Origin: Marsupella aquatica
Taxonomy: Eukaryota > Plantae > Marchantiophyta
Reading direction: 5' to 3'
Length of the DNA stretch: 64,000 nt
Assembly: GCA_973895155.1 (NCBI GenBank)
Contig: OZ316892.1
Coordinates: 7,609,251-7,673,250 of the forward strand
Numbering within the stretch: the stretch's first letter is position 1; each line of letters begins with the position of its first letter. A program made the translations under genes and the position numbers. The notes under the pieces were generated by a model. It was not told the origin of the DNA. It saw only the letters and a program-made list of their open reading frames with translations, and ran no database searches. Below, piece after piece: positions 13,996 to 64,000 of the stretch.

Positions 13996-14371
13996 TATGA
14001 ATGCCTGATGCTGTTTATATTTCAGTCGAATGCAGCGTGATGAAACGCGAGGGAACTCGTGGCAGAAGGTGTCTGCAATCGGCTTGATGGTTGAACACAT
14101 CAGGAAGTGCAGTCAATGAGAAAGCGTTTCTGAAAGTTTCAGAGGTGGATAGAATCCAATCAAATTGTCAGTGGAAGATGAAACAATCAGATGCGTGGAA
14201 ACTGATTTTTCGCCAGGGAAAACGGTCTCTAATCTAAGTCGTCCTCAATTGAGTTCGAGTGGATCACGGATGCATAACAGAGAAGGATGAAATTAAAGGT
14301 ACAGGAGGCAGGACGGCCGTATCTGCTGCACAGTTTTGCTGCCATGGAAATTTCGATCGGTCACCGATCCT

Positions 14372-18897: not shown

Positions 18898-19056
18898 GAG
18901 GGAGCCGCGCGTACGCGAGCTCCCGCTAGCACAAATTATGACGTGCATTTTCCCCTTAGGGAAATGCTAGAAGTTGCCCCGCCGGAGTGCAATGGGGGAG
19001 CCTCTCCTAGGACATCGGCCTTGTTGATCACCGATTGACCCCGCCCAGGTAAGTAT
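18898..19056 (-). ncRNA. U1: U1 spliceosomal snRNA (~159 nt)
   Basis: The - strand reads ATACTTACCTGG (5' splice-site pairing). Stem-loop I is GGTCAATCGGT-GATCAACAAG-GCCGATG (U1-70K loop). Stem-loop II has the ATTGCAC loop (U1A site). Stem-loop III is CATTTCCC-TAAG-GGGAAAATG. Sm site AATTTGTG. Stem-loop IV is GGGAGCTCGCG-TACG-CGCGGCTCCC. Confidence 0.97.
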
Positions 19057-20400: not shown

Positions 20401-20979
20401 GGTTGGCGATGACTATTGAAAAATGGGACGAATTCTACTATAGAAAAAGCAGCGAAGGGAAGTACCAATGTGCAAACGACTGCCGCATCTATAACTTCCT
20501 CAAGTTGGAACGTTGCTACGGATGCAAAATCCGTCACTGTCACTGGCCGGATCGCAAGAATTGTCCTCGAACTTCAATTCTATCAACAAGTTTCCTCTGC
20601 GTACGTTCCAAACCCAGACTTCTAGTTGCAGGTAACTATTTCAATGCCACAATGAAAACTAGGGCCTAATTCTGCAGGTACCGACCAGAGACAGCTGCAA
20701 ATCCACAACAGACGAGTACACTTCTCACTCACTTATCTCTGCACACACGTTGCGCGACGGCACACACCGGCAACGAAGCAGTTCTACCTGTTTCTACTCA
20801 CGCCAGCCGCAGCGACCCAGGGAAGCAGAGTGAGCACACTCTCAGAGCCAGATAGAACACTATCGCTCTAATCAATCTATCTAGCCTCCAAAAAAAAATT
20901 AAGAGCGAGATATATATCTCTAGCCGTTGCGAACGGTCGTGAATTGAGGTTTCTTCTATCACAGAACAACCGGAAGAGC

Positions 20980-21678: not shown

Positions 21679-22167
21679 TCTAGAGCGAAGCCTCTAGACA
21701 ATAAATCCATGGCTCATGAGAAAAATTGATATCTATAATGTATGTCATGTCAAATGATAATCATAAGTACATTTTGTTATGATTTTTATTTATATTAAAA
21801 ATTGATCTTTATGGCCCCACCCTATTATATGTGCACTAGCCCAGACTATCCATTCTTTGAACGTGAATAGTGAAAAGGACAATAAAAGAATTATTAAAAT
21901 ATTTTTTTATTCATTAATATTATTTAAAAATTAATGAAATTATAATATATTATTTTCCTTGTATGTGTACATCAGTATTTTTGTGTGCACATCCATCTTC
22001 TATGCACATATGAATGTTGTGGTGGGGCCATAGTGCTTATATTTTTTGAATGTAATAATTAAAAATTATTATAAAAAATTGGCATGTACATATATCATAC
22101 TCATGTCATGAGTTTCTCTCTTGCACATGATGACCATAGAGTTACGGTCTAGAGGCTTCACTCTAGA
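21679..22167. mobile_element. AT-rich MITE-like element with 21-bp inverted repeats
   Basis: TCTAGAGCGAAGCCTCTAGAC (21679-21699) versus GTCTAGAGGCTTCACTCTAGA (22147-22167), one mismatch. A lone related end, TCTAGAGTGATGCCTCTAGACTATAACTC, lies at 28501. Confidence 0.75.
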
Positions 22168-22305
22168 CCTAGACTCTTAATTATAGACTTCAGTTTGCAT
22201 TTTTATATTAAGATAAGTGGAATGTGGGAAAGAAAAACTGAAAATGAGATGTACATAGAAAAAAATACTATGTATGATTATTAAAATGATGATATGCATG
22301 ATAAT

Positions 22306-22418
22306 TTTTTTATCATTTCATTAACCTTCAAAACATGTGAATAAAGAATATATTTTGGTGACATTTTTATTGTCCTCCCCTCTATTCACGTTCAAAGAAC
22401 AGGTAGTTGGGGCTAGTG
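22306..22418 (-). repeat. Inverted copy of the 10757-10868 dispersed repeat
   Basis: Its reverse complement aligns by eye with 10757-10868. Confidence 0.75.
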
Positions 22419-24439
22419 GTGAAATGAAAATAACATTATTTACGGACCCCACTAGAGGTACTTTCCAAAATTCTTGGCACCATAGCGTGTCACGTCAACA
22501 ACGACCGCAACAAACAAGACTAGTCGGTTTTGTGAATCAAACTTATAGTTTTCATTCGTGTTTGTGTCAATTTGGGTGTAAATTTTGGAACATCGTGCCG
22601 TAAAAAGAAAAGTAAAAACATTGGAAATACAAAGAGCAAGACGGTTAAAACTATCACTATGTAACCGTTTTAGTTACATTTCCAATTTTAAAACTTAAAT
22701 TCAAAGATTTATAAAAAGTATTTTTCATATAATAAATAATGACTAATAACTAACTTGATAACTTCCTCGTTAAACCGCAACTCCCGGTATGTAAGGACCT
22801 CTCGTATTGTACGGCCATTAATGCTGGGAAGAGCACATAGAAACCCAGGATCGGGGAGGAGGAATGGCTGGAATCTTGAAAGTTCATCGAATTCTATATT
22901 CAAAACTATTTACTCATTCTCAAAACAAAAAATACCCACTATTAGATCTCATTGAGATCTTTCTTTTGCACCCTAGATCGCCTTCTAACATGGATGAATA
23001 AGATTTCTAGAGGCATTACAAAATGGACGGCAAAGATCGTAAAATCAACAAAATCGACGGCTAGGAAGGCTTGGATTTGTTTAATTTTTCATTTGAAAAA
23101 TATTAACCCATTTGCAAAACAGACAGAACCCATCCATAGATCTATTTGAGATCTTTATTTTGAGCCATAGATTGGCCATTATGATGGACGGACGAGATTT
23201 CTGGAGATAAGAAATGGAGACGGCTCAGATCGACTCTTCCCCCTGATTTTATTAGCCAAGGGGTCCACGAACTAATTCTTGGTTTTTTTTAAGTTGGAAG
23301 AGTAGGAAGAAGAACCACAGTAGCATGAATTTTATTTTGGGGAGTTCAATGAAGGACACAGCCTGACGAATGAGGGAACACGCATAGTAAGTACAGGAAG
23401 GGTCAGTTTTTATGCACCCCTTTTCCTTCCTGATGGCCCCTTTCTTGCAAGGAGGGTGAAACAGTGGAAATGTACCCGTACACTTTGGATGCACTGCCCC
23501 CTTTTGCAAGCGAGAGTGTAGGTTTATTCTTGAAAAAAGACATTAAGATCTCTGTGTTAAATTCCCAATAGTCTATTGCCAGTGTGCTCCAATTTAGTTT
23601 TTTATTTTATTTCTTTGGGGAGAGGAGATTAAATGGCCCTACTGTGCACCAGTTGACTGGCATGTAAATAAGCACTGAAAACCTGAACATCAACAACATT
23701 GCCTGGTAATTTGAGGTTCATGCGGGATAACGGTCCCCTCTCATCCCAATCTTGAGAAGCATTGGCCTCTAAGGATCCTTGGTGCACAAGCAGAAGTGGG
23801 TACCCAAAATATCCAATGCAGAACCCTTCCAAAACACCATGGTGCACACCAAAATGTCATGTCAAATGGTGAAATTCAACATAATATGGCGCTTTACAAA
23901 ATTTTCATTGTCTAGTGGCGGTGTTTGCCTGGTTAGGTTGTGTGTGGCCTTGGTGATAGTCACTTACCCTATTGTCACTATTTTAGGGCATCTAAACAAA
24001 TTCCTCTTCATGACATTCATATGTGGCTTATTCTAGTAGTTTGCTGTTCAATAAGGTTCTAGTTCCTTTGCTGTTATAAAGAACTCTGGCGGTTAGTTTC
24101 GCTCTTGGGTCTTCTCGGGGTTTGTCCCTTGAATGTGTACTCCCTTTATTGGATCTTTGGCCTCTGGGATCCTGTTACTTGGCTGTCTCCTAGTTTTGAG
24201 TTTTTTGTTGTTTGAAAGTGTGAAATGGATGGTTTGACATGGCAAATATATGTTGTGTAACTATACATTCATATATCATACGGTGAAAGTAAGGTCACAA
24301 TCGGAGTCACAATAGGCAGCATTTGGTGCCCCACATATGTGCAAGATCAATGGTGACACAATAACTAAGATGTGATGGGTGACTTCCTGTGAGGCCTTTG
24401 CACAATACTAGGGACCATTTTTCTTAGTCAGTCATTGAT

Positions 24440-33973: not shown

Positions 33974-34459
33974 TCAAGTGGTACCAACTTACTTGGTGAC
34001 TGAGTTGCTTAAGGTCCTTCCTATATGCCCCCCCCCCCCAAAAAAAAAAAAAAACCAAAAAAAAACCAACAAAACAAGAAAAGAGATAAAACAACAAACA
34101 GAGAGATGGATATTGTAATCTAGCATTTGAAATGAATTACAGGCAAATTGCTTGCTTTAAGCTAATGCCACTACAACTCTACAAACAACCCTACTAGTTG
34201 AATTTATATTGCTCTGGGGAAGGATTTGTACCCCGATTTGTACTCTTCTTGGTCCTTCATATAGTATAGCATGTTCATCGTGCAACATGCCTTTTTTTTG
34301 TCTTGTTGTGATATGTAATTCATATAAGTTATTTTATGATAAAAGAAGTAAGTACATGTAAAGTATACACCAAGAAATTAATATTTGTTAATTAAGGGTG
34401 AGTGACATAACACACAAAACCATAAGTACACATGCAAAGAAAACCACATTATGATCAAG

Positions 34460-34720
34460 AAAATATAAAGGTACTAAAGAGTTGTGCACAAACAATACAA
34501 ATTTTCACTTGCTTAGGTAATGAGAGTAAACTCAATTAAAACCATAAAATATAACGGTACTAAAGAGTTGTGCACATACAGTACAAATTTTCACTTGCTT
34601 AGGTAATGAGAGTAAACTCAATTAAAACCAGAAAATATAACGGTACTAAAGAGTTGTGCACATACAGTACAAATTTTCACTTGCTTAGGTAATGAGAGTA
34701 AACTCAATTAAAACCATAAA
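34460..34720. repeat. Near-perfect tandem repeat, 86-bp unit x3
   Basis: GTACTAAAGAGTTGTGCACA...TTTTCACTTGCTTAGGTAATGAGAGTAAACTCAATTAAAACCA at 34471, 34557 and 34643. Confidence 0.95.
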
Positions 34721-38644: not shown

Positions 38645-39556
38645 CCCGGTTTGGACTTGTCGGACAAATAGGAGGGTTTGGACTTGTCGGACAAATAGGA
38701 GGATTTGGGACAACAAATGACATATGTCATCCCGGTCGATCCCGGCCGGGTGACAGGGTCGGGCCGGGAGAACATAGAGCCGGGCCGGGAGCAGGGTCGG
38801 GAGGTTGGCCGGGTCAGGCCGGGAGATCGGCCGGGGGGGGGGGGTGGGATGGGTCGGGCCGGGAGGGAGAGTCAGGGGTGGGAGACTAAGGTGGGGAGTT
38901 GGGCCGGGAGTCTTGCACGTTTAGGGTAAACCCCGGTTAGGGAGAGCCGGGCCAGGCCGGGAATGGGAGAGCCGGGCCGGGAAGAGATGTAGGGCTGGGA
39001 AGGGGAGAGCTGGGCCGGAAAGGAGGCCGGGCCGGGAAGAGAGGGAGGGCCGGGAAGGGAGGTAGGGCCAGGAAAGGAGGCCGGGCCGGGAAGAGATGTA
39101 GGGCCGGGAAAGGAGGTCGGGCCGGGAAGAGAGGGAGGGCCGGGAAGAGATGTAGGGCCGGGAAAGGAGGCCGGGCCGGGAAGAGAGGGAGGGCCAGGAA
39201 GGGGAGGTAGGGAGGGCCGGGAAGGGAGGTAGGGCTGGGAGTGCAAGCTGGGCCAGGAAGGTTGGGACCCTAAACCGGGGGCTGCTTCACTTAACCGAGG
39301 AAGTCCGGGACTCGGCCGAGAGATTTTGTGACCGGGCCAGGAGTCTTTTCGACCGGGTCGAGAGGGTCGGGACGGGGGTGGGATCTGGCCGGGAGGGGTC
39401 AGGAGAATTCGAGACCAGGCCGGGGACGGGCTAGGAATTTTTGGTCCCGACTGGGAAATATAAGGGAATATTGGACAAATAAGCCATTTTTGAGCGAACA
39501 AGTTGTCATTTGTCGTGTCGAACAAGGACACATCTTGTCCGACAGTGAAAACCGGG
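38645..39556. mobile_element. Non-autonomous TIR element with an 8-bp TSD (hAT-like) and a G-rich minisatellite core, 912 bp
   Basis: Perfect direct repeat GTTGAGCT at 38637-38644 and 39557-39564. TIRs CCCGGTTTGGACTTGTCGGACAA / TTGTCCGACAGTGAAAACCGGG. Interior of ~18-bp GGGCCGGGAA(G/A).. units. Confidence 0.88.
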
Positions 39557-43619: not shown

Positions 43620-45770
43620 AGATGCTAGGAATACTCCTTGTTTCAAAGCTTAGTTTTTAAAGGAGAAGATGCTTGTTTGATTTTCTAGATAGTATTTGAC
43701 AGTCAGATCTCCATAGATTTAAGGAAAATTGTTAGATTTTGGTTAAATGGTGTCTGGGGTCAGGTGGGAGACTTGCTAATGGAAAAAAGAATGGCAAATC
43801 TATGCAAAAAACTGCTACTAGTTTTAGAAAAGTGTAATCTGACCAGGGAACATTCACCACTAAAAACTATGCTGGCCCCATTGCTTCTTTACGGACCCCC
43901 ATTAGGGGTCTCTTGCAAATTCTCTGCCATGAGGTTGCGCCACATCATCACAACTAGTCACAAACAGGAATGATCCTACTTTTAACAATAATAAACGTGC
44001 ACATTCCTGTTTGTGACAAAAACAACGTAATTTTTGGGGCGCTATGCCGTAAATATTAAACGTAAAAAAACCAAAATACAAAGGAAGAGATGTCATTTAG
44101 TAAAACAAAGTTACCATTTTAATGTTTGTCAAAGATATATCAGTGTTTTATATCAAAATGTTTGTATTTTTTTAATTGTTTGTAAGTTTGAAACAATCAA
44201 TTGATAGAAATGTACATAATTAAAACCCATTTGGCTTCACATTGTAAAACTAAATAATAAATCTCCTTAGTACTTGATAAAATTTGCCAATGTTTGATTC
44301 ATTGGAAAATTCAAGATCAAGATTTAGAAACTCGTGATCTCTTTAGTGATGTCTTGATAAAATTTCTCAATGTCACTCATTGGAAAGCTAGAGTAAAATT
44401 AAAAACTCATAATCTCCTTAGTACTTGACAAAATCTATCAATGTTAGGTTCATTGGAAAGCTAGAGAAATTTAGATACTCATGATCTCTCTATTTCTTGA
44501 CAAATAATCTCAATGTCACACATTAGAAAGTTAAAAAGATTGAACACCTCTTGATCTCTTGAGTACCGTGACAAATCTGACATAAAATTTGTAAATGTCA
44601 GACTCAATGTTAGAAAGCTAAAAGAATTCATGAACTCATAATCAAAAAAATTTATACTAACACTCATTGGAAAGGCAAAGATATTCAAAAACTCATATGA
44701 AATTTGTCAATTTGAGGCTCATTGGAAACCCTTTCTCGATTAAGAGATATCACAATCTCGTCACCGTCACAAACTTATTCGCTACAAATTGATTTATTTG
44801 ATTACGTCACCATCGCTTGTCCACAATGCTTGCTTCCCGGCTTGAATTGTTCGCATTTCTTAGATAGTCTTCAACTAAAGCTCACTCTAAATACAGGTTG
44901 ACGCCAAATGCAGCCTCTATGTCAAAGAAACAATTGTTGATCTTCCCCTCACACCATAAGTTTCTTAAATAAAAATAACTACAAATCCTTTGTTTGAAGT
45001 GACGGCTCGTTCGTTTTGTGTGTTCTTCCCACCAAATTGACAAGCGCTCTTTTGCCAACAGCTGAGTGTTGTGCTCTAGTCTATCTTGTGGCGGTAATGC
45101 TCAATGTAACTCACAAACAATCAATCAAGAATGGTTGAAAGATGATTTTTCCAATGTGTAAGCAAAACCTATAAGAAAATTCAATTCCTCCACATTCAAC
45201 CTTCCGTTTGATAGATCTCTATCTTTTGAGCATTTGTTTTTGTACGAGCACACACCAACACCATCGGGAGACTCAAAACCGTTGGTTACCGCCTTGATGA
45301 AAATTGATTTCACTTAATCACACAAACATTCCATGGATGAACATGGGGGTCCACGGATTAATTAATCAGTGTGAGTTTAAAATGGGCACTGTAATGAGCA
45401 GAAATGGCTGCAATAGGCCAGTATAAAGGTTTTCTGTTTGTTTTTGCCAGGGTGCATGTCACCTTGTGCAAACACTACTATGCTAGGACTATTCCTTAAA
45501 TGATGTTCATAGATTAGTTTTTGACAGTCAGATGTCCAGAGATTTAAGGATGAGGGTTAGATTTTGGCTAGTGGGTCTTGTGGCCAGGGGGGAAACTGGT
45601 TAAATGAAAAGAGAACCCTAGCAAAGTTTTGCCAAACTAGCTACTAGTATTGAAGAGGTGGAAATGATGGGAATTTTTGCCACTAAAAACATGCTGGCCC
45701 CATTGCTTCGTTTAATCAATTACCGTGAGATTAAATCTTGACACTATAATGAGTGGGAATGGCTACTCTG
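43620..45770. repeat. Diverged tandem repeat hosting element copy B; related inverted copy near 54820-54875
   Basis: 43620-43890 aligns with 45480-45710 (TTTGACAGTCAGAT.TCCA.AGATTTAAGGA...TTAGATTTTGG; CCACTAAAAAC.ATGCTGGCCCCATTGCTTC). The second unit shows the empty insertion site. Confidence 0.7.
43892..45357 (-). mobile_element. Non-autonomous DNA transposon, copy B (1466 bp), inverted relative to copy A
   Basis: TTA at 43889-43891 and 45358-45360. Ends CGGACCCCCAT... and ...CATGGGGGTCCACGGA. Track ORF 43902-44096(-) is almost the same peptide as ORF 4793-5038(+), confirming homology. Confidence 0.85.
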
Positions 45771-46675: not shown

Positions 46676-47140
46676 TGTTCTCATGATTCCCCACTCTCAA
46701 GTGAGGAGCATGAAGAGGGGGAAAGAGGCTCTGATCAAATCCTTCTCATGAGAAGAGGGATAGATTTAATCACTGCGTCCGAGCTTAATTCAGCAGGTGC
46801 TGCTCAAGTTGGGAATTCCTGAAGGGATCGAGAAGCTTATGTAGCTGTACAAAGATGACTGATAAAGTTGACGCTGATGTGAATGGAAGTGTGGATTTCT
46901 TCGAGTTTCTGGCTTATAGTTGTGGCAACTCTTAGATCTCTCCATCTTCAATTCATTTTGATTTGAGAAATAGGGTTTCAAAACGAGACAACGGTAGCTT
47001 CTCCAAGAGACTTAATTAGTTAGGGATGTAGAAATGTGTTATTGTCAATATCCATAGAGGGATGTAAGCCAATCTGGATACTAGGAGACTTCGGATAACT
47101 TCATTAATTAAACCATCAGTGTCTAGATGATGACTGTGGG
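46676..47140 (+). pseudogene. CML pseudogene: decayed copy of the 3' half (EF3-EF4, C-tail and 3' UTR) of CML-3
   Basis: GAGGCTCTGATCAA, ATCACTGCGTCCGA, CAGCAGGTGCTGCT.AAGTTGGGAATTCCTGAAGG, GTTGACGCTGATG..AATGGAAGTGTGGATTTCTTCGAGTTTC and CTCCATCTTCAATTCA match 50278-50750. Frameshifting indels and stops; no start codon and no EF1-EF2. Confidence 0.92.
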
Positions 47141-48703: not shown

Positions 48704-49854
48704 GCAGGTACGAAAAATTATGTAGTCCTTGTTGAATTGATAGCTCGGCTGATTGTTGCTAAGCTGGTAGATTGAGCCGTTTGTATATATGATCCAGAGG
48801 TTCAATAATCCAGTGTTCAATTTCATGTTCGAGAAAGACTGAATCTGTTGAAGATTATTATTTCTTTCGAACAGGCGACAATCCTCGTGAGGGTCGTCCG
48901 TGGCCAGGTTAATATGGTAGTATTACTCGAGCGATGCCCTCAGATTTTCAGCACCGAATCTGGAATGGCGTCCGTATGACAAATTGGTTGAATGCGACGT
49001 TTTGTACATTAGTCTAGTATGTGACGGAGCTCTGCATGAGTTAATAGTGTTGTCCTACTCTTGTTGTCGTTCCCAAATCCTAAGTACATTAGTCGAGGAT
49101 GTGATGGAGCTCTGCAGGTAAAAGTGTCGTCGTGCTCTTATTGTTGTTCACAAATCCTAAGTTGTCTCGTGGACTTGCACGCAGAATTGACAAACCTGTT
49201 CAAATACAAAGACAGAAATAAAGATCGAAAACTCATGTACATCAACCAGGAAACCAACTGAAGACAGACTTGGAAAAATAGCTCTAAACAAGGAGGGGCA
49301 ATCTTGACACATGGTTCTCTCTTTTGTAAAATTCTTGCATCGTTGTCTCTGCGAGCTTTACTCAATTAGTCAAACTGCGAGGAACCATTTCCAGCAAAGA
49401 GCAAGACATCAAAGGTTTCATTCCGTCGGTTTTTCTCGATTTTAAATTTGCTCCATTTTTTTCCTCTGCTGTGGTCAATTAGTCGCTCTGTTAGTAAAAT
49501 AATCGCACTGCGACCATTGTAGTTCAGTGTCGGTTCCAAGATCAGTTCTAAAGCAGTATAATTGTCACCGATCCGAATGTCGGTTCCAACATTAGTTGTA
49601 AAGCAGTATGATTGTCACGGATCCTAGTTCAAATGTAAGAATTTACTCAATCTATACATTGTAATTACAATCCGCAACTGATAATTTAAGTCAGCTCGTT
49701 TCTCATTGCTAGCTGCGGGGCTAGCTGATGTCGTTCGGAACTTCATTCTGAGGTCGAAACTCTAAAGCTCTGTTCCTTCTTCGACCTCAGTGCGGTACAT
49801 AAAAGAAATCAAGTCAGAGCTCGTACTATAGTCAGCGAAGCAGAGTCAGATATC

Positions 49855-50637
49855 ATGGCGACATTGACGCAACGCATAGCGGAGCTCTCGAAACATGCTC
49901 TGTTGATGTACCGGACGATGCTCATAAAGTCTGAATTGAGGAGACGTAGAGCAGTAATTCAAAATGCTGAAGACCGTCACAGCACACTCCTACCAGATAA
50001 TGTCTTGCCCACTGCTGCTCCCCCTGGTTCGTCGATCATGTACAATTGCAACCGATCCGAAATAAAGCGCGTGTTCAATCTGTTCGACGAGAACAAGGAC
50101 GGTGTCATATCTGCCGATGAGCTGCAACTGTACATGAGAAAATTAGGTTTTGACTTGTCGGAACAAACTGTGAGAGGCATAGTGGGAAGCGTGGACAGAA
50201 ACAGCGACGACTTGGTGGACTTCGACGAATTCTACTCATTGTACAGCTCTGTATCCAAGGTGTCGAGGGAGAAGAGCTGTTCTTCTCATGATTCGCCTAT
50301 CGCAATTGAGAAGGATTTGGACGAGGAGGAAGAGGAAGAGGCTCTGATCAAGGCCTTCTTCGTCTTTGATGAGAACAGGGACGGCTGCATCACTGCGTCC
50401 GAACTTCAGCAGGTGCTGCTGAAGTTGGGAATTCCTGAAGGCAGAAGCTTGTATGGCTGTACAAAAATGATTGAAACAGTTGACGCTGATGGCAATGGAA
50501 GTGTGGATTTCTTCGAGTTTCAGGACATGATGAGCTCAAGTGTTTTCAGTTGTGGAAGCTCCTTACCTCCATCTTCAATTCACTTCGATTTTGGAAACGG
50601 GGCGTCAAATCGAGACCAGTTTTCGAAAGAGGAATGA
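49855..50637 (+). CDS. Calmodulin-like protein CML-3 (4 EF-hands, basic N-terminal and Ser-rich C-terminal extensions), 260 aa
   Basis: EF loops DENKDGVISADE, DRNSDDLVDFDE, DENRDGCITASE and DADGNGSVDFFE. LGIPEGRSLYGCTKMI motif. Intronless ORF. Confidence 0.95.
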   Translation: MATLTQRIAELSKHALLMYRTMLIKSELRRRRAVIQNAEDRHSTLLPDNVLPTAAPPGSSIMYNCNRSEIKRVFNLFDENKDGVISADELQLYMRKLGFDLSEQTVRGIVGSVDRNSDDLVDFDEFYSLYSSVSKVSREKSCSSHDSPIAIEKDLDEEEEEEALIKAFFVFDENRDGCITASELQQVLLKLGIPEGRSLYGCTKMIETVDADGNGSVDFFEFQDMMSSSVFSCGSSLPPSSIHFDFGNGASNRDQFSKEE

Positions 50638-52356
50638 GTTTCATCTGTACAAATTTGTCAATATGAAGATCCATAGAGAGGAAAGCGTACGTAGAGAGTA
50701 CGAGAATTTACGGTCTTAACTTCATTAAACCCATCACTAGAACATGAGTGTGTACATAATGTACGAGGCAGAAACGGTAGACGATAATTTCGCAGTTTGC
50801 ACATATCTAAATTAAATCTCCACTGTATTTTTAAGATGGTCTGACATTCAACCTATTGCGGCCCATTTTGGATCATTCTCAAACGTCGTGGTAGATTTGG
50901 GCTTCTGTTCTCAGAAAACCCATTTAGCGCATTGTACATAATTTTTAAAGGAGAGTCAATAATACTTGGAATCCTCCTTCCTACAAATGTTTGACATGTA
51001 CACATGTTATTAAGAATAACACCAGTTTACTGGTTTAATATGAGCATTGCATATTTGAATAGGAGAGCCGATAATCAGACTCTTCCTACAACTGTTTGTC
51101 ACTTAAAATGATTAAAGCAAAACTCTAGCTTGAACTGCACCTCCTCCGGGTCCACCTCGAGCGAGTCCAAGAGCAGTTGATCTTGGTTGCAACGGGTCAT
51201 CGAAATACCTTGAGCACAAACTTCGGTCTTAAGTACTGCGGTCAAAGCAATCATGGGACGGTGTTAGAGATGCGTGGTCCTCTGGAGGAGCCAGTCCAAC
51301 TTCACCATACAATGGATCACATGGAAAACGAGGGACTGTAATCTATAGGCTAATTGACTTTAGTGCTCTTTTGTCTAGTTTTCAGCATCTGATTGCCAAG
51401 AGCTGGTGAGCGTTGAATTTCTCAGCCTACTGAACGATCTACTGAAAATGAAGGGTTGAGACGTCCTCAGCAGCCCTACAGTTGAATTATTGATTTGAAG
51501 ATTCACGGGTGAGCTATCAAGTCTCGAAGCAATTCAATCATTAGTTGGTGAATTCCGGATCGGGTTCCGGATGCATCATTGCGAGGTGATTCTGAGCTTA
51601 TGTCGAACTTATTTAGCTCAAATCTCTCAAATTCGAGATTGGCACATTTATCAAATGAAGATTGTATGGACTTTCACTGACCTCACCGAGCCTCTTCTAC
51701 TGCAATTTAAACATTGACTTGTCGACATAGCTGACTCCAACCCAGCTATTTGGTGAGCCAATGCTATTCTGGACACCTAAAACTCACAAGCAATTTACAA
51801 TATTACAATTAAAAATGTGAGGATCTGTAGTACCTACGTAAGAGGTATTATTCGACATTAATATTAATTATAAGCTCAGATCTCATCTACCTAGCTCTGA
51901 TCACACGTTCTCTCCATCTCCAGCCAGAGGTTGAGAACTTGAGATGATACACGGATAGTCCGTGACGTCTCTGATTCTAGTTCCTACGCATGGTCCCTCT
52001 GGTCCGTCCATTCATTCATTGGGACCGCAGTGTATATCTTGATGAATAAGCTAAGCTCGAGGTTCATCTGTTATGTACTCGATTGACGAAAGGATGATGT
52101 TCACAATCAGGTAGCATCCGCTTTTGCCGGTTATCTGAGATCAAAATGTGATAGTATAATGTGTGCATTCAATGATTTAGATAGAATAATGAGATTTATC
52201 ATGGTAAGGACTGATTAAGTGTGCAATTTAAATAGAATAATGAGAGTTATCATGGTAAGGACTCATTAAGTGCACGATATTTTACTGGAATGTATTTTTT
52301 ATAAATTTTAATATCGTGAAACCCTTTTTATAAATTTTAATACCGTGAAACCCCAC

Positions 52357-52780
52357 TGATAGGGGGCACAACAAAGTCCAATGCAGCCAATACCAAACAA
52401 CACAACAAGGGCAACACAAGTGCACAATATTTTGATGTGCAATTACCGGGACTGGCAGAGAAGAGCCTCACGAGTTTTTTGCCACTCCTGACTGTATCTT
52501 TTTTTGACTCATAATGAATTAGCCTCACAAGTTTTTGGTCACTCAAGACTGTATTTTTTTTGCCTCATAAAAACCAAATGAATTCCATTCAAATAACCCA
52601 GCATATTTATAGAAAACAGGGGAAACAGGGGAGCCCCAAACAGCCGCATCCCCCCAAAGGACTGGTGGGTGTGGTGCTAATAGACCAGTGGAGCAGGTGC
52701 CAGGGAAGAAACTGGGCTTCAAAAGGAGTCAACTACACAAGACATTTTGTAACTACAACGGGATCAATACACTCCTACCA
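52357..52780. mobile_element. Possible solo-LTR-like remnant
   Basis: TGATAGG...CCTACCA termini and an internal TATTTATAG motif. No matching target-site duplication seen. Confidence 0.35.
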
Positions 52781-55700
52781 CTGGCCAGTGATCAGGTTAC
52801 TCCTACATCACATTTGTAACTACCAGCCAGTGATCAGGTTACTCTTGAAATGAGCATTTGGACTGTCTCTAGGCTGTGAACTTAGCATCTGTTAATCTAA
52901 TTATAATGATAGGTAATGCCACTCTTAGATTGAACCCTCTATTGAACCTTTTGGGCTCCAGGTTGTGAACTTTATGCCTCTTCGCAACCCTCCTGTGTGG
53001 TTTCCTCCTCTACCAGGCTTTTGAGTGTGGTGCTAAGATGGGCTCTAGTTCTTTGTAGAAAGTTGGGACTCAAGGGTTTTTTGACTCTTTGAATTAGTCT
53101 GTCCAGATTTCTCCCTTGTTAATTTTCCCCTTATGGGGTTTCTTAACTTGGGATCTAGTCCCCTTTGGGGATCTCTCCAGCTTATATTTTAATGCAAAAT
53201 TCCTGCTCCCCAAAACATTTTGGCCACTTTTGGCAAAGATTTGCTAGATTATTTGAATACCTTTAGCCAGTTTCCCCTTTGGGGGGGGGGGGGGGTCATT
53301 ATATGGAGGGTCATGCATCAAGTGCAAAGGTTTGGTCATTTATGACCCCCCTAAGGACCCCCTAAGTCACTTTATATGAAGTTGTATCACACAAATCACG
53401 TGAGTACATGTGTGCATTTTGCTAAGGAGATGTACCCGGAGATGTAATGATCACTCTGGATATAATTAGGAAAATCAGATAAGAAATATCAGGAGTGATA
53501 TTTGTAGCATCTTCTCCCTGAGAGAGGTTGACATTTGCCACACTGGCTAGAAAAAGATCTATTCTCTTGGTATGGTCCCGGGTATCATGGTGTTTTCTAT
53601 TCTTTGGCAGTCTGTTTTAATTGTTCTTTGCCGTGGTACATATATCTTCAGCTTTTCTCTTGTTGCACTATTTTAATTATAAACTCTCTCCTCTTGTCGC
53701 CTTCGCCTTACAAACTGGAACACAGGGCATGGGATCCTTGGGAACTCTCACAGTCTCCTAAGACCGTGAGCACAAAAGGGCTGGCTGACTCTTCCTGACC
53801 ACCCAAGTCATGGCCCTCACCATCTTCATTCTAGCACCAAAAATTTGCTAGATTCCCTGACCTGTTTGAAAGGCCTTCTCCATTTTGATAAATTCATTAC
53901 CATAGTCACATAAAATAATTTATTAACACATTTATGGGGCCATCAAGTGAATTCAAAGTTTCAGACCTGTCAGCCTGGGATAATACACTGGCCGTTCCTC
54001 AAAATTGAGAATAAATTAAAAGCTAGACACGACAGCCACATGGGGCAAATTGCTTTTGAAAACTAGTTTTTCTGTTGAAATATGTGGCAAACACATATTT
54101 TGGCTAGGTGGCCTGGAAAACTTCTCTCTAATTAAGGGAATGCCATAGTATCACGGCCCCTAGGACATTTGGCAAACTAGGTTACTACTACAGTACGTAG
54201 CTTTCTTGACTTCCTTTAGCCAGTTTCCCACTTGCATTAGCCAGAATTTAAGGTTATCATTTTTAATTAAATCTAGTGAGATGTGTTGGCTGGCTAGACT
54301 CTAGTCTCGGCAACTTGGATAAAGAATATCACTAGCATCTTCTCCTTCACACAAGGCCATAGCTCAAAAGTAAAAAACCTTGACCATTCCTTGCGTGCAA
54401 CTTTCCTTCTCCCGGACAAGCTCCACCAAGTGTTTCCATTCTGATAATTATGTGCAAATTTGCTACCAGGTGAAGTGGTTTGCAAATTATACAGATAAGT
54501 TTTTAAAAAGTTCTAGTCTGGGATTTTATCTCAGATAAAATCCTTGGTTAGATTTCTGACTGTGCCATGAGTGTCACCCGCCCAAAATACAAAAGGAAAC
54601 CCTGGTTCCACCTTGGGCCGAGACTGTGCTCGGACAATGGTTGTCTCTTCAAGATGCCATAAGTGTCACCTGCTGAAAATACAAAAGGAAACCATGGTTC
54701 CAACCAGCGTATTTTTAAGTGCAAATTTTAACCAAATTCCACCTCCCCCAAAAATGTTCGCCACTTTTGGCTAATATTGGCTGGATTTTTTGACCACCAT
54801 TAGCCACTCTTCATGGACCCCATTAGCCAAAATCTAAGTGTACTCCTTAAATCTAGGGTTATCTGACAGTCATGATTTACTTCAGTAAAATATGGAGAAC
54901 ATTCGCCACACTGGCTAAAAATTAAAAAACCTTAAAAAACAAGCCGGTTCCAAGCTGTGGCCCAACTATGCTCGTACCATGGTAGCCTCCTAGCGGGCCC
55001 TGACCGCGTCCGTCGCACCACCCTCCGACCTCCCACTCGCTTGCAGACTACGGCGATCCTGCCCTGCGGCTTCCTCCTCGCAAACTGAGCGCCGCCCTCT
55101 AACCGAGCACGGACCCGCCCTTTGGCCCTGCGTCTTCCTCCCTGCTGTCGCTGGCTCGTGCGAATCCACGCCGCCCATCTTCGGGACGCTGCGTCGTGGC
55201 CATTATTGTACTGCAGCTGGACCCGCCCTTTGGCCCTGCGTCTTCCTCCGTGCCCTCACTCGCTCGTGCGAATCCATGCCCAGCTCCCTCTGTCCTCTCT
55301 GGACGAGTGGAGTGCGCACTAGGCTTTTTCATCCCTGCCTGTGTATTTTCTTCGGCTGGAGGCCAAAAGGACCTACCATAGTTCGTTGGAGGGTACGCCT
55401 GCTTTTTCAGGGCCGGCTGCCTAGAGGACAGGTCTCTCAATTGTGTAATTTTTCATGGCCTCCTCTCTGTAGTGAAACCTCTAGTTGTAATTATGTTTTT
55501 ATAAATTTACTCGTTTATTTGGCATGAAGTCTTTATTTGGAAAAAGACCCAAACGGCACACGAATGCCTGTAACGCAGAATGGCAAGGGCCCAGTCACCA
55601 CTGGAAACAGAGCAACCCAAACGTGTCCCTAGTATTTGTAATTTTCAAAAGGAAATTCTCTACAAACGGTGATTATCAAAGGAATTACAAAAGGAAATTC

Positions 55701-58077
55701 TCTAGAAACGGTGATTATCAAAGGCTACTATCTAGAGTGAACTTCTGGAGTGTGACTCTGGGGAGTTGGGGGTGGAAGTGCAAAACTTGGAAGCATGGGG
55801 GCATTGCAAATAGTAGAGCCTATTCGAGCCTATTCGAATGTACCTACCTCTAAACTGTGGCTCTGGGGAGCTAGGGGTCCTAGTGGGAAACTGGGGGCAT
55901 GGTGAATCTTTGCAAATGATAGAAAGTGTCTGAATGTACTCACCTCTATTAACTCTATTTACGGTCAAAGAACCTTGGGCACTCAGACTAGTGTATATAG
56001 AGGGGCATGTGAAAAAAATGCTATGGCTCGCCAAGGAAGTGGACCGAGATGCAAAAGTAGAAGCAAAACTGGCCGTGGGCCCTGCATTTTTTGTGGCAGC
56101 TGGGTACGAAGGGCATGACATTTGTTTTGGTTTGGGCGGCGCAAGCTATTACCTACAAGGGGCGTGTGATTCTTTTGAGTTCGGTTCCAATGGCTAGGTA
56201 GTGATAAAGGGCTTTCGAATTGAAAGTATCATGCTCGCAATCAGATTTTGGGGAATTTGGGTTACATATATTTCTACGTCCAACGTAACTCTACGTACGC
56301 AACTGTTGTCGTTGTTTGATGCACAAGTTGCGGAAAGAGACGGGCACATGACCAGGTTCCCTTCACGTGACTGACCATCCTTGTTTAGTTCCGGCATATT
56401 CATCTCCTTCAAGTGGGGACAGACTGCATGGGGAATTATCTATTTTCGAATTCTTGAAGAACTTGACTTTATTGGGCACATTCCATCACTTAATGTCTCA
56501 GCATCAATCCTCTGAGCGAAAAGCGAAAACTATAACAAAGTGAGTAGGGACCCAGACACAGGGACTTCTAATGCTTCTGGAGCTTGCGTAAACCGTGAAC
56601 AATTATGAATCACAAAGGTATGACGATCGTGAAACTGAAAAGTGTGCTGTGATTGCCCTCGTCTTTGTCTACTGAGATTACAATCTTAGCTTACTTTAGA
56701 AGGGGCAGCCAGAACATTCCACGGCTAGCATCAGCGTGATTGGAGAAATCTTGCTCTGCTTCTTCAGTTGACAACACCGCCAGTGGACCCAAACGATGTG
56801 AATCGAAGGCCAATATATAACAGAATGTGGTGGCCCCGGCAGACCTCAGAAGCACACAATACTTAAATCCAGTTTGGTTTAGGCTCAATTTCAGCATTAC
56901 AGTATCTGGAGAGCATAGCTAGAAACAAGAGATGATATCAGCAATACAGTATCTGGAGAGCATAGCCAGAAACAAGAGATATATGTGTTCAGGTGATCCA
57001 GTAGCAGAACTTCGATTCCTCCTCTCTCCATATCGTTCAAGTGAGCTATATATGGCAGGTCAGACGGAACGGACTCCAGCGTCTTTGTACTTTATTCAGG
57101 AAATTTAATATGATTACCCAAGTAATGGAGTAATAACAGCACCGTGCACATGCCAGCCTGTCAGTTCTGTACGTGGTTGTGAACTTTCGCCCCATAAGAG
57201 TCACCAGAGTGGTCTATACATGGCCTTCGTATACATATATATGAACAGATTGCTTTTGCAGCCGGACCGTTCAAGTCCATTAGCTGTACTCCTGTAATCA
57301 TCTATGGAACAATCAAGCCTGACAGTAGAGTCCAGAGGCACCAAGAAGAAAGTTTTCTGTACGTGTACATTAGGAATTTGGAATACTGTAGGAATAATTA
57401 GAGGATCGTTGAAAAAGTCATTAGATACTTCATGTAGCACTGTCTGATAAGAAATATTAATTAGGGTCACAGAGAATCCCACGTGTGAATGTATTTCTTC
57501 CTGGCTGTCCAGACTTTATGCGTGAGCATCGTGGGGGAGGTCAGCTAATTCACTGCTTCGCAACAATGTGACAACCTATTACACGTCGAAGGTTGTGCTT
57601 ATTACATCATGGGTGCCGTCAACAATGAGCTAACTCCACAGAATGTCTTATTTAAATTCCATTTAGTGGTTGGAAGTTGTTCACAACATAAAGAATTCTG
57701 GCATCATTTTGTAACAACTGATGTATTCTGGAAGCAAGGCCTGCAGAAGTCTGTCAAATGCTCTGCTCATGGTCTATATACATTATTTGTGGATGTGACG
57801 AGATTAATCCAGTTCCAATTCTAGCAATGATGGATCTGAGGTCAATTACTTTGGAAGTAACCTACGGTACCTCTGTACGTTCTTTGTCACGAAGGGATTG
57901 AATTCTTCATGGGAGTACAGGCTTCGTAGGTAGGGAGTAGGGACTCCTCTTTGTGTAAAGCATTTGACGCGAAGACAGGCGTATAATACATCAAATTATA
58001 CACGGCAGTAATGGTTTGCAAGTTGAATTAGTTTGTGAAGTTTTCGAGGTCTTGCGCTACATCCTGTGGAGCTGCGC

Positions 58078-58084
58078 TATATAA
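58078..58084 (+). promoter_or_regulatory. TATA box upstream of the long fold-back
   Basis: GCGC-TATATAA-GGCC followed by pyrimidine-rich initiator-like sequence, ~200 nt before the 5' arm. No ORF of note downstream. Confidence 0.6.
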
Positions 58085-58281
58085 GGCCTCGCTCACTTCT
58101 GTTCTCCTCAATTGATGACGAAGAGAACTACCATTCTTCGTGTTCGTCGGCAATGTCTGGCACCATACATCACTCTCAGAATCCACACGATGTTGTTAGA
58201 CTATCTGTACATCATCTTCAGGATTTTCGCGACTCAGTCTGACTGTTCGGCACGTATATGACGACGTCGAGTCCCTGCAAG

Positions 58282-59305
58282 CCTGCCAAAAGCGCACTGG
58301 TATTTGTGATTTGCAATCGAATTCTTTGACAGTCTGTACTTCGACAATCAACCCCAACAATTTGTCCATCTCCTTTCTGCACAAAGCTGATCATGGTCTC
58401 GTACAGGAAGCAAGAGGAAGGCCATGATCGGAATTGAGTTCAACCTCGTGCATCAGTTGGTTCATCATATATTAGACTGCAAGCCAGCTTAGTTTTGTAG
58501 ACTTTGAATTTTATTGCTAAAGATTGTTGCCTTGGATATATAGCTATAGCCTGCTCAGATTTCTGAAACATTGCCTAGTTTCAGAATTTATCTTAGCTTG
58601 GGTAACTAAACCAAAGAGTTTCACCAGCAGAGAAACACATTTCCTCTCCAATTTGAAGCACATTTGATTCCGAATTCCAGTGACTCGAACCAAGGCATGG
58701 AGCTGTAAGGGAGTCAAGTTATGGAAAGAACTTCTGTCAGATTACAACAGCAAGTGACATGTTCATAGCTTCATGCATAGGAGCATACTTTGACTTAGTA
58801 CATGCATGAAGCCATGGACAGGTCTCCATTTGTTGTAGTCGCACAAATTCTAAAATCCCAGAATCCAACTTCCTTAGATATCCATGCCTTTGTTTCATCA
58901 TGGCGTCCAGAGTTGAATGTGCTTCAGATTGAAAGAAAGTAATCGTGTGTTCTCTGGCTGATGAGCAGTTTCGTTACCCCAGCTAAACTACATTCTTGAA
59001 AATACTAGAGTTTGAAAATCTGAGTCGGTGTGGTCAAGACAACTAATACTTAGTGGTCTAATTAAAGTCATCATTCACAGGAAGTGAACTGGAAAACAAC
59101 GAAGCAAGTCGTAATCATTCTAATAGAGAAGTTCTTACTGTCTAACTCAAAGTTGCTTCAGAAGGGAGGAGAATTGACGAAGCTGCTAGAATACGTCACC
59201 GTCACTGCATGAGTACGTCTTTCAGACTGTGTTAAATTAGAACTGGATGTTTTTTGTATTATTTCTTGAAATGCAATCATAGTTTGTGCAAGACAGTTGG
59301 TAAGG
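58282..59305 (+). ncRNA. Candidate long hairpin RNA / MIRNA-like precursor (~1-kb imperfect fold-back, apical loop 58779-58801)
   Basis: Colinear complementary blocks: 58756-58778/58802-58824, 58740-58750/58830-58840, 58706-58714/58868-58876, 58692-58701/58881-58890, 58649-58670/58910-58931, 58593-58606/58973-58986, 58554-58562/59016-59024, 58500-58505/59064-59069, 58470-58476/59119-59125, 58434-58440/59144-59150, 58370-58379/59159-59168, 58329-58336/59223-59230. Arm differences are mostly G:U-compatible on the + strand. Confidence 0.75.
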
Positions 59306-60320
59306 AATAGCTAGAACGTGGTAGCTAGACAGTGGTGATTCAGAGAAACTTTTTCCGTTTTAGCACTTGACAGCATATATATTATTGTCCACTGGCAGCT
59401 AGCTGCTTCAGGTAGAGCTACTGCAGGTAGAGTTTAGCTCCCTGCATAACGCCGACTGAGAAGGGAAGGTTGGCCCCTTGCATTGCACCGATGCAAAGGG
59501 TTTATTAAGACCGTCTTGCAGCTTCCGTCATTTAAAATGGTGGGCAGCCGCTTAACAAGGTGAGGCTGCGTGTAGACTGTCGACTTCTTCGGAGTGAAAT
59601 TGGATACTCACGGCTCGATGGAATGTGGGATTACACCTAACGTTGTTCTGTGTTTAATCTCCCTGTGTGTAGAGTTGTAATCATCAGAAATACACCGAGA
59701 TTCCACGAGAAGATCCGACGTATTTCCAGGTATCCTGTATCATGAGCGGTTTTACCCAGTTTGATATCGTTGTGAGTGTGAAACTTCCTAAATGTGAGGA
59801 AGTCTCCCGTTCTCCCTAGGTCTACCCAGGAAGAACTTTAGAGCTGTAGCTCCACCCTTCTGCCTTTAGAGCTGTTGATGAGCCATCCTGAAAAGCGCCA
59901 TTTCGCATCTGCATGTAGCATGCAAACCTATATCAGGTGGAATTGTCATGGTCCTCATTCAACCGTTACCTTGAGAGGATCTCCTAGACTGTTCGAGAGA
60001 TTGTGGCAGTATCCTGTGTCTGAGCTAATTAACTCTCCTGGGCGAACTTTCCGTGTGTGCAGTTGGTCTGCAAAATAATTGTCTTGCTGCCAGGGGACTT
60101 TTCGAGTACTACATGATGAACTCGTGGAGTACATTCGAGTAGCATCATGTGTTTGTGCAAGCGACGCAGGAGATTCTTCCTTACTCAAGTTACCAGACTT
60201 TCCATTTGTAGCTTGGGTCATCTTTATCCAGCGCAATCGGATGTGTGAACACCCTGTGTGAAGCATCTGGCTCCAGACTTTGTGGCACCTTGGCTACATG
60301 GCGAGAAGTAACTGCCTCGG

Positions 60321-60357
60321 TCCATACTTTCTGGCACCTTTGGCTACATGGCCCCAG
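60321..60357 (+). pseudogene. Tiny receptor-kinase-like fragment (subdomain VIII GTFGYMAP) ending at a splice donor
   Basis: TCC ATA CTT TCT GGC ACC TTT GGC TAC ATG GCC CCA G|GT encodes SILSGTFGYMAP followed by an intron-like GT. A 1-nt-shorter duplicate lies at ~60277-60302. There is an in-frame stop just upstream. Confidence 0.4.
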
Positions 60358-60722
60358 GTACGAGCTCTGCCTATTCTAGATATAATAGTTGCGTGAAAGA
60401 AGAATCTCATCATCTTCGAGGTAACGGTGCAAATGTGTGAATTGAGGGAGGTTCACGCTGAACTCTATGACGACCTTCTGCTTTTGGGTACTAAGGGTGT
60501 AGGTCTTTGGAGCACGCAATGTGGTCTTTTGAGCTATTTTTAAAGAATGAACTCACGATTCTTTTGAGCTATTTTAAAGATCGTAGGCCTTTTTCCTCTG
60601 TTCTTTGAGTATGAGACGCGACGAGACTCAGCACCAAAGGAGATATTATGGTTTTGGAATAGTTCTTCTTGAATGAATATACTCACCGCCAAAAAGCTAT
60701 TCCACAAGCTAATGGCATTCCA

Positions 60723-60870
60723 TCAAATTGACGGCATGACATCTTCGGCCAAAAGTGAGGGTCTTGTGAATATACGGGAACAATATTTTCATAGTCCAAA
60801 CTCAAATTGACGGTATAACATCTTCAACCAAAAGTGAGGGTCTAGTGAATATACGGGAACAATCTTTTCA
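60723..60870. repeat. 79-bp tandem duplication
   Basis: TCAAATTGACGG.AT.ACATCTTC..CCAAAAGTGAGGGTCT.GTGAATATACGGGAACAAT.TTTTCA at 60723 and 60802. Confidence 0.9.
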
Positions 60871-62695
60871 GAGTTAGGAGACTAAACTGTTCGAAGAAAT
60901 AAGTGTGCTGCTCATCTCAATATCAGGGAGCAAATAACGTAACTTTGTGCGTGGGCCTGTATTGCACATCATTGCTGTCCCAGAGTCGCACATCCATGAA
61001 AATTGTTTTTCACAATGGTAGTGATTGGAGTCGAGAATTTAGGACGAGAACCTGGCACCCAGAGTACTATAGATGACGTTCATGCAGTAGACGTGCTTCC
61101 AACCTCAGACAATGAGGTAACTAAATAATAGCAAATGTTCTGTATACTCTTTGTGATGTACTGCATTGTACCTTGGGTTGTCTGCTTTTATTAATCTTGT
61201 AGACGTCATTTTGTTTCCACTCGTGAGGCCCATCGTGCAAGGCATGCTAGGTCTTGGCAAAACAGTGTCTCCCTCATTTCCATCTGGGTCGTCTGTTTCG
61301 GATCTCACATACTGAGTAGTTCAATTTGCTACCACCAGCTCTACTACTGTCTTGAGAACAGTGCTCCGAGTCTCTCTAAAAACCCAAGATGAAAAACCCT
61401 GGATGAGATGCATGAGCGATGCATGATGCCGTGCTACCTCCTCGTCCAGAACGTGCAGATGTGCTACAGAGCACTTTCGCATGCTGTGCGTCCGGAACAT
61501 GCAGAGAACATGCAGATTTGCTACAGAGCACTGTTCGTATGATGAGGTACACTCGCGACAATGATGTGAAAACTCCAGTGAGCTTAAACAGCTCACAACA
61601 AAATCTAGTGAGGGTCAGTCCCACCACAAGTTCACACACCATCCACAAGTTAACACACCATCCACAAGTGCTCTAAAACAGATCTATAGTATAGATACAA
61701 GTGAGATCGTCATTGTGGTCTTTATCCATGCGCCCTCCCTGACGTTTTCCTAGGGTTGGCCAATTGAATGGGACTGTCAGTAACTAATCAACTCATAACT
61801 GTAGATCCTCTGGTTTTAGAGAATGGGGCGACAGTTCTTCCTTGTTTGGACGGCACGGCTTCACAACTCGAGCAGAATGGCTCCTAAAGATTCCGGAATA
61901 GGATCGACCTTAGAATCCAGAAGTATCGATGCTTTGAATCCAGAAAGTCTCTCAGTACTTCTTAGAGGGTTGTGATTCCCACATTAGGACGAATCCTTTC
62001 AGCACAAATATTTACTGATTCGAGACAAGATGGAAGGAAAACTACATCATCAAACTATATGCCATGAAATGACAATCAGGGATTGGAACTAGCCTTCGAG
62101 GATTCCTGCTAATCCCATCAACATGCCTATTAACACTCCTCTAAATAATATGAAGACTCGAGAGTCCCAACTGCATCTACAACCTGTACATCCAAAGATG
62201 AAGACTGTAACCGCAGCTTCAGTCGAAAGATGGTGATTTGTTTACAACACTTGTTATTCAGTAGTTTTCGGATTTATTTCGCATCACTAGCTGCAGATTC
62301 CGACACCGACAGGACAGCACAAGAAGGCCACTGGACCATACCATACGATTTGCAGTCAACAAACAACGGTGTAAACCCATCTCACTACCACCACCCCAAA
62401 AGCTGCTACAGTGCGTCCAACGTAAATATATGAACGACACAAAACTAGTGCATAGATCAAAGAAGTTCGAGGCAGACATTATAGTTATTAGGCCCGACTA
62501 TTTCCAAGAAGTGGGTTACGAAGAAACCGAAGGGAATCGACGGAGCAGAGAGAACACCAAAGATCTTATTCCATCGAAACGTACTTTGATGTGGCCGAGA
62601 GAACAGCGAAAAGATTAATCGGCAGGGATTCAAAGCTCACCAACAAGCAAACAAAGGGAAGGTTCTACTTCGACGAGGCAAAGAGAACAGAGGAT

Positions 62696-62890
62696 ATCTA
62701 TTTCCATGAGAACATACTTCGATGTAGCAGAAAGAACACCGGAAATCTACTTCCATGATGACATACTTCGATGTAGCAGTGAGAGCACCGAAAACCTACC
62801 TCCATGAAAGCATACTTTGAAGTAGCAGAGAGGACAACGAAATCTACTTCCATGAGAACATATTTCGATATACCAGAGTGAACACCGAAG
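62696..62890. repeat. Tandem repeat, 48-49-bp unit x4
   Basis: CTA.(T/C)TCCATGA...CATA.TT.GA..TA.CAG...GAACACCGAA, with CCATGA at 62704, 62753, 62802 and 62850. Confidence 0.9.
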
Positions 62891-63021
62891 AGAGAAGGGA
62901 ATCGAAATCTCGAATTCAGCAATACTACAAGGACCTCGCGGACTGCGCAGACAGCAAAACGCACTGAATCGTTACTTCCTCTTCCTCCTGTATACATAAG
63001 AGGTCCTCGCTTGTTTCTTGA

Positions 63022-63105
63022 GCTTGAGCTCCTAAACCCTAAACTAGCCCAACCGCAAATTGAAGCATGAGCTCCTAAACCCTAGACTCGCCCAACGGCA
63101 ACTTT
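63022..63105. promoter_or_regulatory. Duplicated telo-box plus site II-like module
   Basis: GAGCTCCTAAACCCTA(A/G)ACT.GCCCAAC occurs twice. AAACCCTA (telo-box) next to GCCCA (site II / TCP) is a known plant housekeeping-promoter combination. Confidence 0.4.
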
Positions 63106-64000
63106 ATTAACGGATAGTCCACCGTGCATTACTGCAGCGTGTATAAGTGCATCAAGTAATTCAGTGCAAGCTTGCCATGTGGTCCCATAATAATGCCGGT
63201 ATTTCCTTTGTAGATAGACCAAACAGTGTATTTTACTTATAGGGTTATTTTACTTATAGGGTAGTGGCGGTGGGGTTACTAGTCTGTAAAGCTCTAACAA
63301 GAAATTGAAGAAAGCTGAAAAACAGTAACTGGGAAGTTTTTATGAGCTTTGTGAGAACACGAGCTTTGTGAGAACAGTTTTCAGACTAGAACCCTAGCCT
63401 AAATAGTCATTATCAATCATATGTAATAACTGCCCAGAAAAAAGACTACCGGGTAAGATTTTCAGGGCACAGGGTTATGGTAAGGGTAGCACCTAGTAGA
63501 AAAGGTTACACACCAGAACCTTTCTTCGTGACAAGAGTTACTTAAATGCAAGAAGAACCTGACAAGAGTTACTTAAATGCAAGAAGAACCTCACGAAACA
63601 ACAAATTATATGTAACTCCAACCAAGAAGAGTACATATGCATCTACCACGTGCTGCAATTCCTAAGTAAACTTTAATTGATAAGTCAGTCTATGCACTCA
63701 GTCAGTTGAATCATGTAATATAAGGGCTTTGGGTATGAGGAAATGCATAAGTGATTCCACTGTATGCACTTTGGAGAAGTGCATAAATGACATCTCACTC
63801 ACTTATAGTGCATGCCATGGATGTGAGCACGCTTAGGGTGACTTCCTTGGAACCTGCACTTAGACAGGGTACTGTATTATTGCCATCTTGGCTGGCACAA
63901 AAAAAATTAAAAAATTAAGATTTTGGACTTGACTGACAAAACATTTTATAGGAGGGTTTAGGGTTTAGAATCATGCAAATTGAAAGAATTATAGGTATAT

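Follow-up and report, generated by a model that had tools for sequence, protein, structure and literature searches.

A 570-nt inverted repeat of Marsupella aquatica as a candidate hairpin small-RNA locus

The DNA analysed here is a 64,000-nt stretch of the leafy liverwort Marsupella aquatica (contig OZ316892.1, positions 7,609,251 to 7,673,250, hereafter the window). It contains a RIN4-like gene (193-1197) and three EF-hand CML genes, located at 11664-12590 (+ strand), 19594-20412 (- strand) and 49729-50637 (+ strand). Among the 18 matches of the RIN4-like protein, the closest is found in Calypogeia fissa (69%), followed by Marchantia (49%) and Riccia (45-47%). The three CML genes appear to be single-exon and encode long N-terminal extensions, while a broken partial CML copy is found at 46779-47007. 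As a guess, the RIN4-like and CML genes could form a calcium-signalling or immunity cluster. The sole Rfam match in the window is a full-length U1 snRNA (18898-19056, - strand, 131 bits), which follows the CML gene of the same strand (19594-20412) at a distance of ~540 nt.

The window also contains several repeats. A 1.5-kb inverted pair with internal tandem repeats (3525-5000 and 43889-45364, ~87-90% identical) possibly represents two copies of a non-autonomous element. An AT-rich fold-back (21823-22432, 28% GC, MFEI 1.11) has arms that are 70% identical and a run of 28 pairs; it is MITE-like, and an incomplete further copy of it lies at a distance of 11 kb (10757-10903). Short degenerate tandem duplications are present at 14370-14894, 34458-34720, 38955-39261 and 62533-62889, with a 49-nt array near 62.5-62.9 kb.

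The fold-back studied here is centred at ~58790, with no recognised gene closer than ~7.9 kb. Its score of 501 is the highest among the 316 centres scanned in the window, the runner-up reaching 367. It is formed by the folding of 58500-58778 on 58802-59069, a total of 570 nt, with arms 74% identical on either side of a 23-nt loop (self-BLAST E 4e-18). The features of the locus are listed below.

58077-58085, + strand: TATA-box-like site, recognised by its sequence, with a putative promoter function
58108-58110, + strand: initiator-like YCA motif, with a predicted start at A58110, 32 nt past the TATA
58110-58499, + strand: predicted 5′ leader, not homologous to the 3′ flank
58115-58261 (48 aa) and 58153-58242 (29 aa), + strand: short ATG frames of the leader
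58500-58778, + strand: 5′ arm of the inverted repeat, from the alignment
58649-58670, + strand: 5′ side of the best duplex, which has 22 uninterrupted pairs on the + strand only, with a candidate 5p small RNA, e.g., 58652-58672
58779-58801, + strand: 23-nt spacer or terminal loop region, from the sequence and the fold
58802-59069, + strand: 3′ arm of the inverted repeat, from the alignment, with natural variants at 58888 and 59017-59055
58910-58931, + strand: 3′ side of the best duplex, with 58910-58930 and 58913-58933 as examples of a candidate 3p small RNA
59070-59400, + strand: 3′ flank, outside the repeat, with a U-rich tract near 59245-59270

A first, sequence-only reading had proposed a ~1-kb fold-back pairing 58282-58778 with 58802-59305. 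The stability of the structure was confirmed, with folding z-scores of -10.8 on the + strand and -10.1 on the - strand against 40 shuffles per strand, and its MFEI is 0.91. Its length was not, as homology is limited to 58500-58778 and 58802-59069. The pairing proposed for the outer arms (58282-58499 with 59070-59305) reaches a score of 79, which corresponds to chance (shuffle mean of 82, with 54% of 500 shuffles reaching 79). Within the true arms, the two duplexes singled out by that reading are present: 58649-58670 and 58910-58931 form 22 consecutive pairs, four of them G:U, without a mismatch, and 58740-58750 is fully paired with two G:U. The best duplex closes a span of 275-290 nt and can yield 21/21-nt pairs with 2-nt overhangs, such as 58652-58672, which starts with a 5′ U, with 58910-58930 (span of 279 nt). 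As previously proposed, the locus lacks an ORF: none of at least 100 aa is found in 57516-59954, and the longest stop-to-stop frame over the stem is 78 aa.

The TATATAA noted at 58078 is also present, in a window that contains 15 occurrences of this motif. The longer CTATATAA occurs three times on the + strand of the window, at 58077 and at two sites (11404 and 48696) upstream of CML genes. The combination of the TATA and the YCA is found once in the window for 0.66 expected by chance, with a pattern that was defined after the site had been seen. The TATA and initiator are located ~390 nt ahead of the stem, and the chance of finding such a promoter site at most 600 nt from either stem end is ~0.01-0.14 depending on the looseness of the definition, which is again post hoc. 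The CpG o/e behind the TATA is 0.94, compared to 1.18 and 0.95 for two CML promoters, and 18% of the tiles are equally high. As for the transcript end, the U-rich tract near 59245-59270 is a guess.

The main argument of the sequence-only reading was that G:U-type differences between the arms greatly outnumber A-C ones, which was taken as evidence that selection on the + strand RNA maintains the structure. The full arm alignment comprises 191 identities, 14 gaps and 66 substitutions, of which 20 are of the G:U type, 15 of the A-C type and 31 of other types. A ratio of 20:15 is not an excess (p=0.5), and five alignment scorings gave 20:15, 27:27, 20:15, 11:11 and 20:15. Isolated and unambiguous differences are equally divided, four of each type. 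Across 40-nt blocks, the ratio ranges from 6:2 to 2:5 (the latter at 58700-58739), and the blocks of the earlier reader are selected G:U-rich ones. Moreover, the same-window controls gave 60:45 for the 1.5-kb inverted pair, whose copies are 39 kb apart and thus unlikely to share one hairpin, and 19:14 for the AT-rich fold-back at 21823-22432, so that the G:U share is 57-58% in all three. The 95% interval of this share is 0.39-0.74 at the locus; with a true share of 0.75, at most 20 out of 35 would be obtained with p=0.016, and with a share of 0.65, with p=0.21. Hence a strong bias (at least 75%) is unlikely, while a mild bias is compatible with the counts.

Folding is not strand-specific either. 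The energies are alike on both strands (-205.9 and -208.6 for the + and - strands, and -261.7 on both for 58380-59200), and the MFE folds contain 22 G:U on the + strand and 20 on the - strand. When the alignment columns were permuted 20000 times, 15% of the permutations produced a run of 22 pairs on the + strand and 26% on either strand; consequently, the best duplex is not beyond the permutation null. The AT-rich control fold-back surpasses the locus in both MFEI (1.11 versus 0.91) and run length (28 pairs). Transitions represent 35 of the 66 substitutions between the arms and 37 of 70 in the polymorphism of another sample, X3 (p=1.0; the test used 35:30 versus 37:33, omitting one of the 31 transversions). 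Similarly, the indel to substitution ratio is 14:66 between the arms and 22:92 in the local polymorphism (p=0.85). Since the G:U share, transitions and indels match those of the controls or the polymorphism, and both strands fold alike, arm divergence is indistinguishable from neutral decay. The proposed selection on the + strand RNA is therefore unsupported, near-equal counts of G:U and A-C being the outcome that had been named beforehand as speaking against it. For comparison, the best-aligned ~90 nt of pre-Mpo-miR11670, examined by eye, contain four G:U-type differences and one A-C-type difference, numbers that are too small to judge. Methodologically, a G:U bias drawn from hand-picked blocks disappeared on full alignment, and inverted pairs of the same window provide a neutral control.

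These results raise the possibility, rated somewhat below an even chance, that the repeat is a silent or near-silent old local inverted duplication in neutral decay, in which the TATA and the invariant 5′ arm described below would reflect coincidence and a shared haplotype. Such a repeat could contribute to background 24-nt siRNAs and to methylation. Arm divergence equals that of the neutral controls by every measure, both strands fold equally, the 22-pair run is ordinary, and the window is rich in decayed local duplications and contains a second, equally stable fold-back. Inverted repeats are also abundant in a moss genome, with 132,656 of them (median identity of 79%) described in P. patens, most of which are not small-RNA loci according to PMC2600652. 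The low CpG o/e of the arms (0.33) points the same way, though 28% of the tiles are equally low and the CpG contrasts are non-significant. However, only 4 of the 35 transitions are found at CG and 4 at CHG, which gives no clear methylation-driven decay. The neutral explanation also has to account for a TATA and an initiator in the usual spacing and orientation, and for a 249-nt part of the 5′ arm that is identical in other samples.

This last observation comes from a comparison with contigs of four DNA sequencing runs (X1-X4) from two studies, of which X1, near-identical throughout the stretch and perhaps its source, was not counted as support, and X2 was analysed to ~57%. The run contigs cross the flanks and the stem without joints, as expected of genomic DNA. 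Over 3001 nt (57200-60200), 70 substitutions are found in X3 and 83 in X4, i.e., the region varies by ~3%. In X4, a contig spanning 58493-58741 (record 20) has 0 differences at a depth of 89.5, compared to a two-haplotype sum of 86.5 nearby, while a contig of X3 spanning 58493-59016 (record 11) has 1 difference. In both contigs, the 249 nt of 58493-58741 are free of differences. The probability of such an empty stretch is 5e-5 if the 114 variant places are uniform, and 0.02-0.18 if they form 40 to 15 clusters. Bin arithmetic indicates no further X3 contig over 58614-59017. The invariance is to be read with the tendency of assembled contigs to drop small bubbles: X3 has a depth of 47.5 across the stem, less than the 65 given by the sum of its two haplotypes, and X4 has a depth of 18.2 beyond the listed pieces in 58513-58613 and further pieces from 58712 on.

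Individual variants were drawn from among 40 of the 92 substitutions, 12 of the 22 indels and 25 of the 80 pieces. Of the seven listed in the 3′ arm, two convert a pair to G:U, one converts a G:U to a Watson-Crick pair, one removes a bulged base and three break a pair, one of these within an 11-bp helix; their effect on pairing is no better for the + than for the - strand. Beyond the arms, 59186-59396 is a second stretch without a listed difference in X3 and X4, at about half depth, where another allele is probably missing from the contigs. In both X3 and X4, haplotypes differ at 11 of 202 nt in 58987-59189 and at 25 of ~300 nt in 59513-59807. Haplotypes that are 5-10% apart in places, with uneven ratios in X3 and X4, may indicate mixed plants or cryptic lineages.

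Inverted arms, a short spacer and no coding capacity are also shared with MITEs and fold-back transposons, whose terminal repeats could form such a hairpin. The window itself contains a MITE-like element (21823-22432, with another copy at 10757-10903), and false MIRNA calls are known to arise from MITE-like repeats (10.1101/213314). Nevertheless, it is very unlikely that the locus is the relic of such an element. In agreement with the sequence-only reading, no TSD was found, with no 2-11 nt candidate for ends within 58490-58509 and 59060-59081. Identity is not maximal at the outer ends (21, 14, 21, 19, 21, 21, 21, 17 and 19 per 30 columns, and 17/20 at the loop), and the GC content is 39-40%, versus 28% in the MITE-like control. 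At 80% likeness, no pile-up of related contigs was seen in the four runs (one contig over the 3001 nt in X1 and one over 58523-58986 in X3), which argues against a multi-copy element, and no relative is found in the window. A Pfam search of the six frames of 51001-64000 and 58450-59130 gave nothing real, including no transposase match in 51001-64000.

A donor of the arms was searched for as well. No sequence similar to the arms is found elsewhere in the window. A word search with one 65-aa frame returned 22 candidates, none at E 10, and phmmer gave 0 matches for one of the six frames. The best Atlas scores, 0.82 and 0.76, are below lead level, and stops are common to both arms in all six frames. 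Least probable of all is that the 5′ arm is kept for another reason (an enhancer, a lncRNA exon or a short-peptide gene) and that the 3′ arm is its neutral inverted copy: the invariance concerns the 5′ arm only, the 3′ arm carries pair-breaking variants and two short ATG frames lie downstream of the TATA, but Pfam, Atlas and phmmer support none of the frames tried and the shared stops interrupt every arm frame.

No known miRNA family was recognised. Rfam gave no MIR match at gathering or at E up to 5, with two chance-level matches near the stem. Comparison by eye with the 42 Pellia miRNAs of Table 2 of PMC4368373 gave no match, and within file 2 of the Marchantia supplement (PMC4788410), five of six motifs had 0 matches and the sixth had 2 unrelated ones in target rows. 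Only three liverwort-specific miRNAs are reported in PMC9291395 as common to Pellia and Marchantia, hence the lack of a family match is also expected for a real lineage-specific gene. A metagenome match (L001) to a pattern common to both arms extended no further than the 22-23 nt of the pattern itself, lacked a surrounding fold-back and was attributed to chance. Finally, no site with a penalty of 4 or less was found elsewhere in the window for 52 candidate 21-mers, so that neither the CML genes nor the RIN4-like gene nearby stand out as targets.

The explanation that is tentatively preferred, at close to an even chance, is that the fold-back belongs to a known class of hairpin small-RNA loci. 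What was observed comprises the repeat with its limits and stability, the invariant 5′ arm, the motifs resembling a promoter and the absence of close copies. The preference over neutral decay is a judgement that starts from a low base rate, is raised by two modest signs (the TATA/initiator and the invariant arm) and is lowered by the absent bias; neither sign is decisive for the reading as a gene. Accordingly, of the earlier proposal of a + strand hairpin RNA gene, the argument from G:U selection has fallen, while the idea of a lineage-specific gene is still viable through the TATA and initiator, the lack of close copies and the invariant 5′ arm.

In this proposal, an old local inverted duplication would have generated the 570-nt repeat, and a non-coding unit would be transcribed by Pol II from ~58110 on the + strand through the stem. 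Folding of the RNA would give an imperfect stem of 260 bp, from which DCL1 or DCL4 would release 21-nt small RNAs, the main product presumably coming from 58649-58672 and 58910-58933. Marchantia encodes the Dicers DCL1a, DCL1b, DCL3 and DCL4 (PMC11799827). By analogy with the general pathway, AGO-guided cutting of targets would follow. If there is selection, its object would be a single small-RNA sequence or a few of them, rather than base pairing along the entire stem.

Among the possible forms of such a locus, a loosely processed inverted repeat is rather unlikely, and a precise lineage-specific MIRNA somewhat more so. The criteria for MIRNA annotation include a single-stranded Pol II precursor, a foldback of at most 300 nt, and the sequencing of both miRNA and miRNA* with a precision of at least 75% in two libraries (10.1101/213314). 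The duplex 58649-58670/58910-58931 lies within the structural limits (at most five mismatches, at most three bulged nucleotides and no large loop), as do other windows on both strands. The part closed by the best duplex spans 275-290 nt, and the whole 570-nt stem exceeds the length limit; with this whole length, and with sequence and folding as the evidence, filing the locus as a MIRNA under these criteria is not possible. As an inverted-repeat small-RNA locus, for which folding on one strand and an origin other than a transposon are required, the fold-back has a z of ~-10 and no TE domain, TSD or close copies.

The closest known systems are the Marchantia precursors pre-Mpo-miR11670, of 408 nt and beginning 294 nt into a 1144-nt transcript (PMC4788410), and pre-Mpo-miR11672, of 913 nt (PMC9291395). 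Like the fold-back of M. aquatica, these liverwort precursors form a long imperfect stem in a non-coding unit, behind a leader of a few hundred nt and with several duplexes possible. However, they are backed by reads, miRNA* and degradome targets, whereas the present fold-back is known from DNA alone. In view of their lengths, describing the locus as unusually long was an overstatement. In Physcomitrella, the Pp21SR loci are inverted repeats of 100-1000 nt that are not linked to transposons, produce stranded 21-nt RNAs and grade from precise miRNAs into chaotically processed repeats (PMC2600652); they were defined by small-RNA reads and the present locus by sequence and folding. An origin by inverted duplication is shared with the Arabidopsis IR-MIR and proto-MIR genes, in which DCL use is set by stem length (PMC2582634), and with the ir-siRNA loci. 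Long ir-siRNA loci such as IR71 and IR2039, both over 1000 nt, are near-perfect (10.1101/238691), in contrast with the 570 nt and 74% identity found here, where the searches run identified no donor gene.

If transcribed and diced, the fold-back would provide the leafy liverworts with a small-RNA locus of their own, where a search for literature on small RNAs of this group found work on Marchantia only, and its targets could reveal lineage-specific regulation. No new mechanism would be involved. The most specific version, which is distinctly improbable, is a leafy-liverwort-specific MIRNA with a 570-nt precursor, several 21-nt duplexes, a 5′ arm under purifying selection and a short upstream peptide frame. 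Such a gene would be the first long multi-duplex small-RNA gene for the lineage, and an example of a working hairpin devoid of the G:U strand signature. A short frame ahead of a pre-miRNA has been recorded in Marchantia (PMC10841014). For the leader frames of the present locus, no coding constraint was seen and the best Atlas score of the 48-aa frame was 0.76, below lead level. Two changes in X3 alter residues of the 48-aa frame, and indels in other samples at 58256-58320 fall within the leader. The leader also contains a separate small hairpin of ~14 pairs at 58381-58432, with an MFEI of only 0.57.
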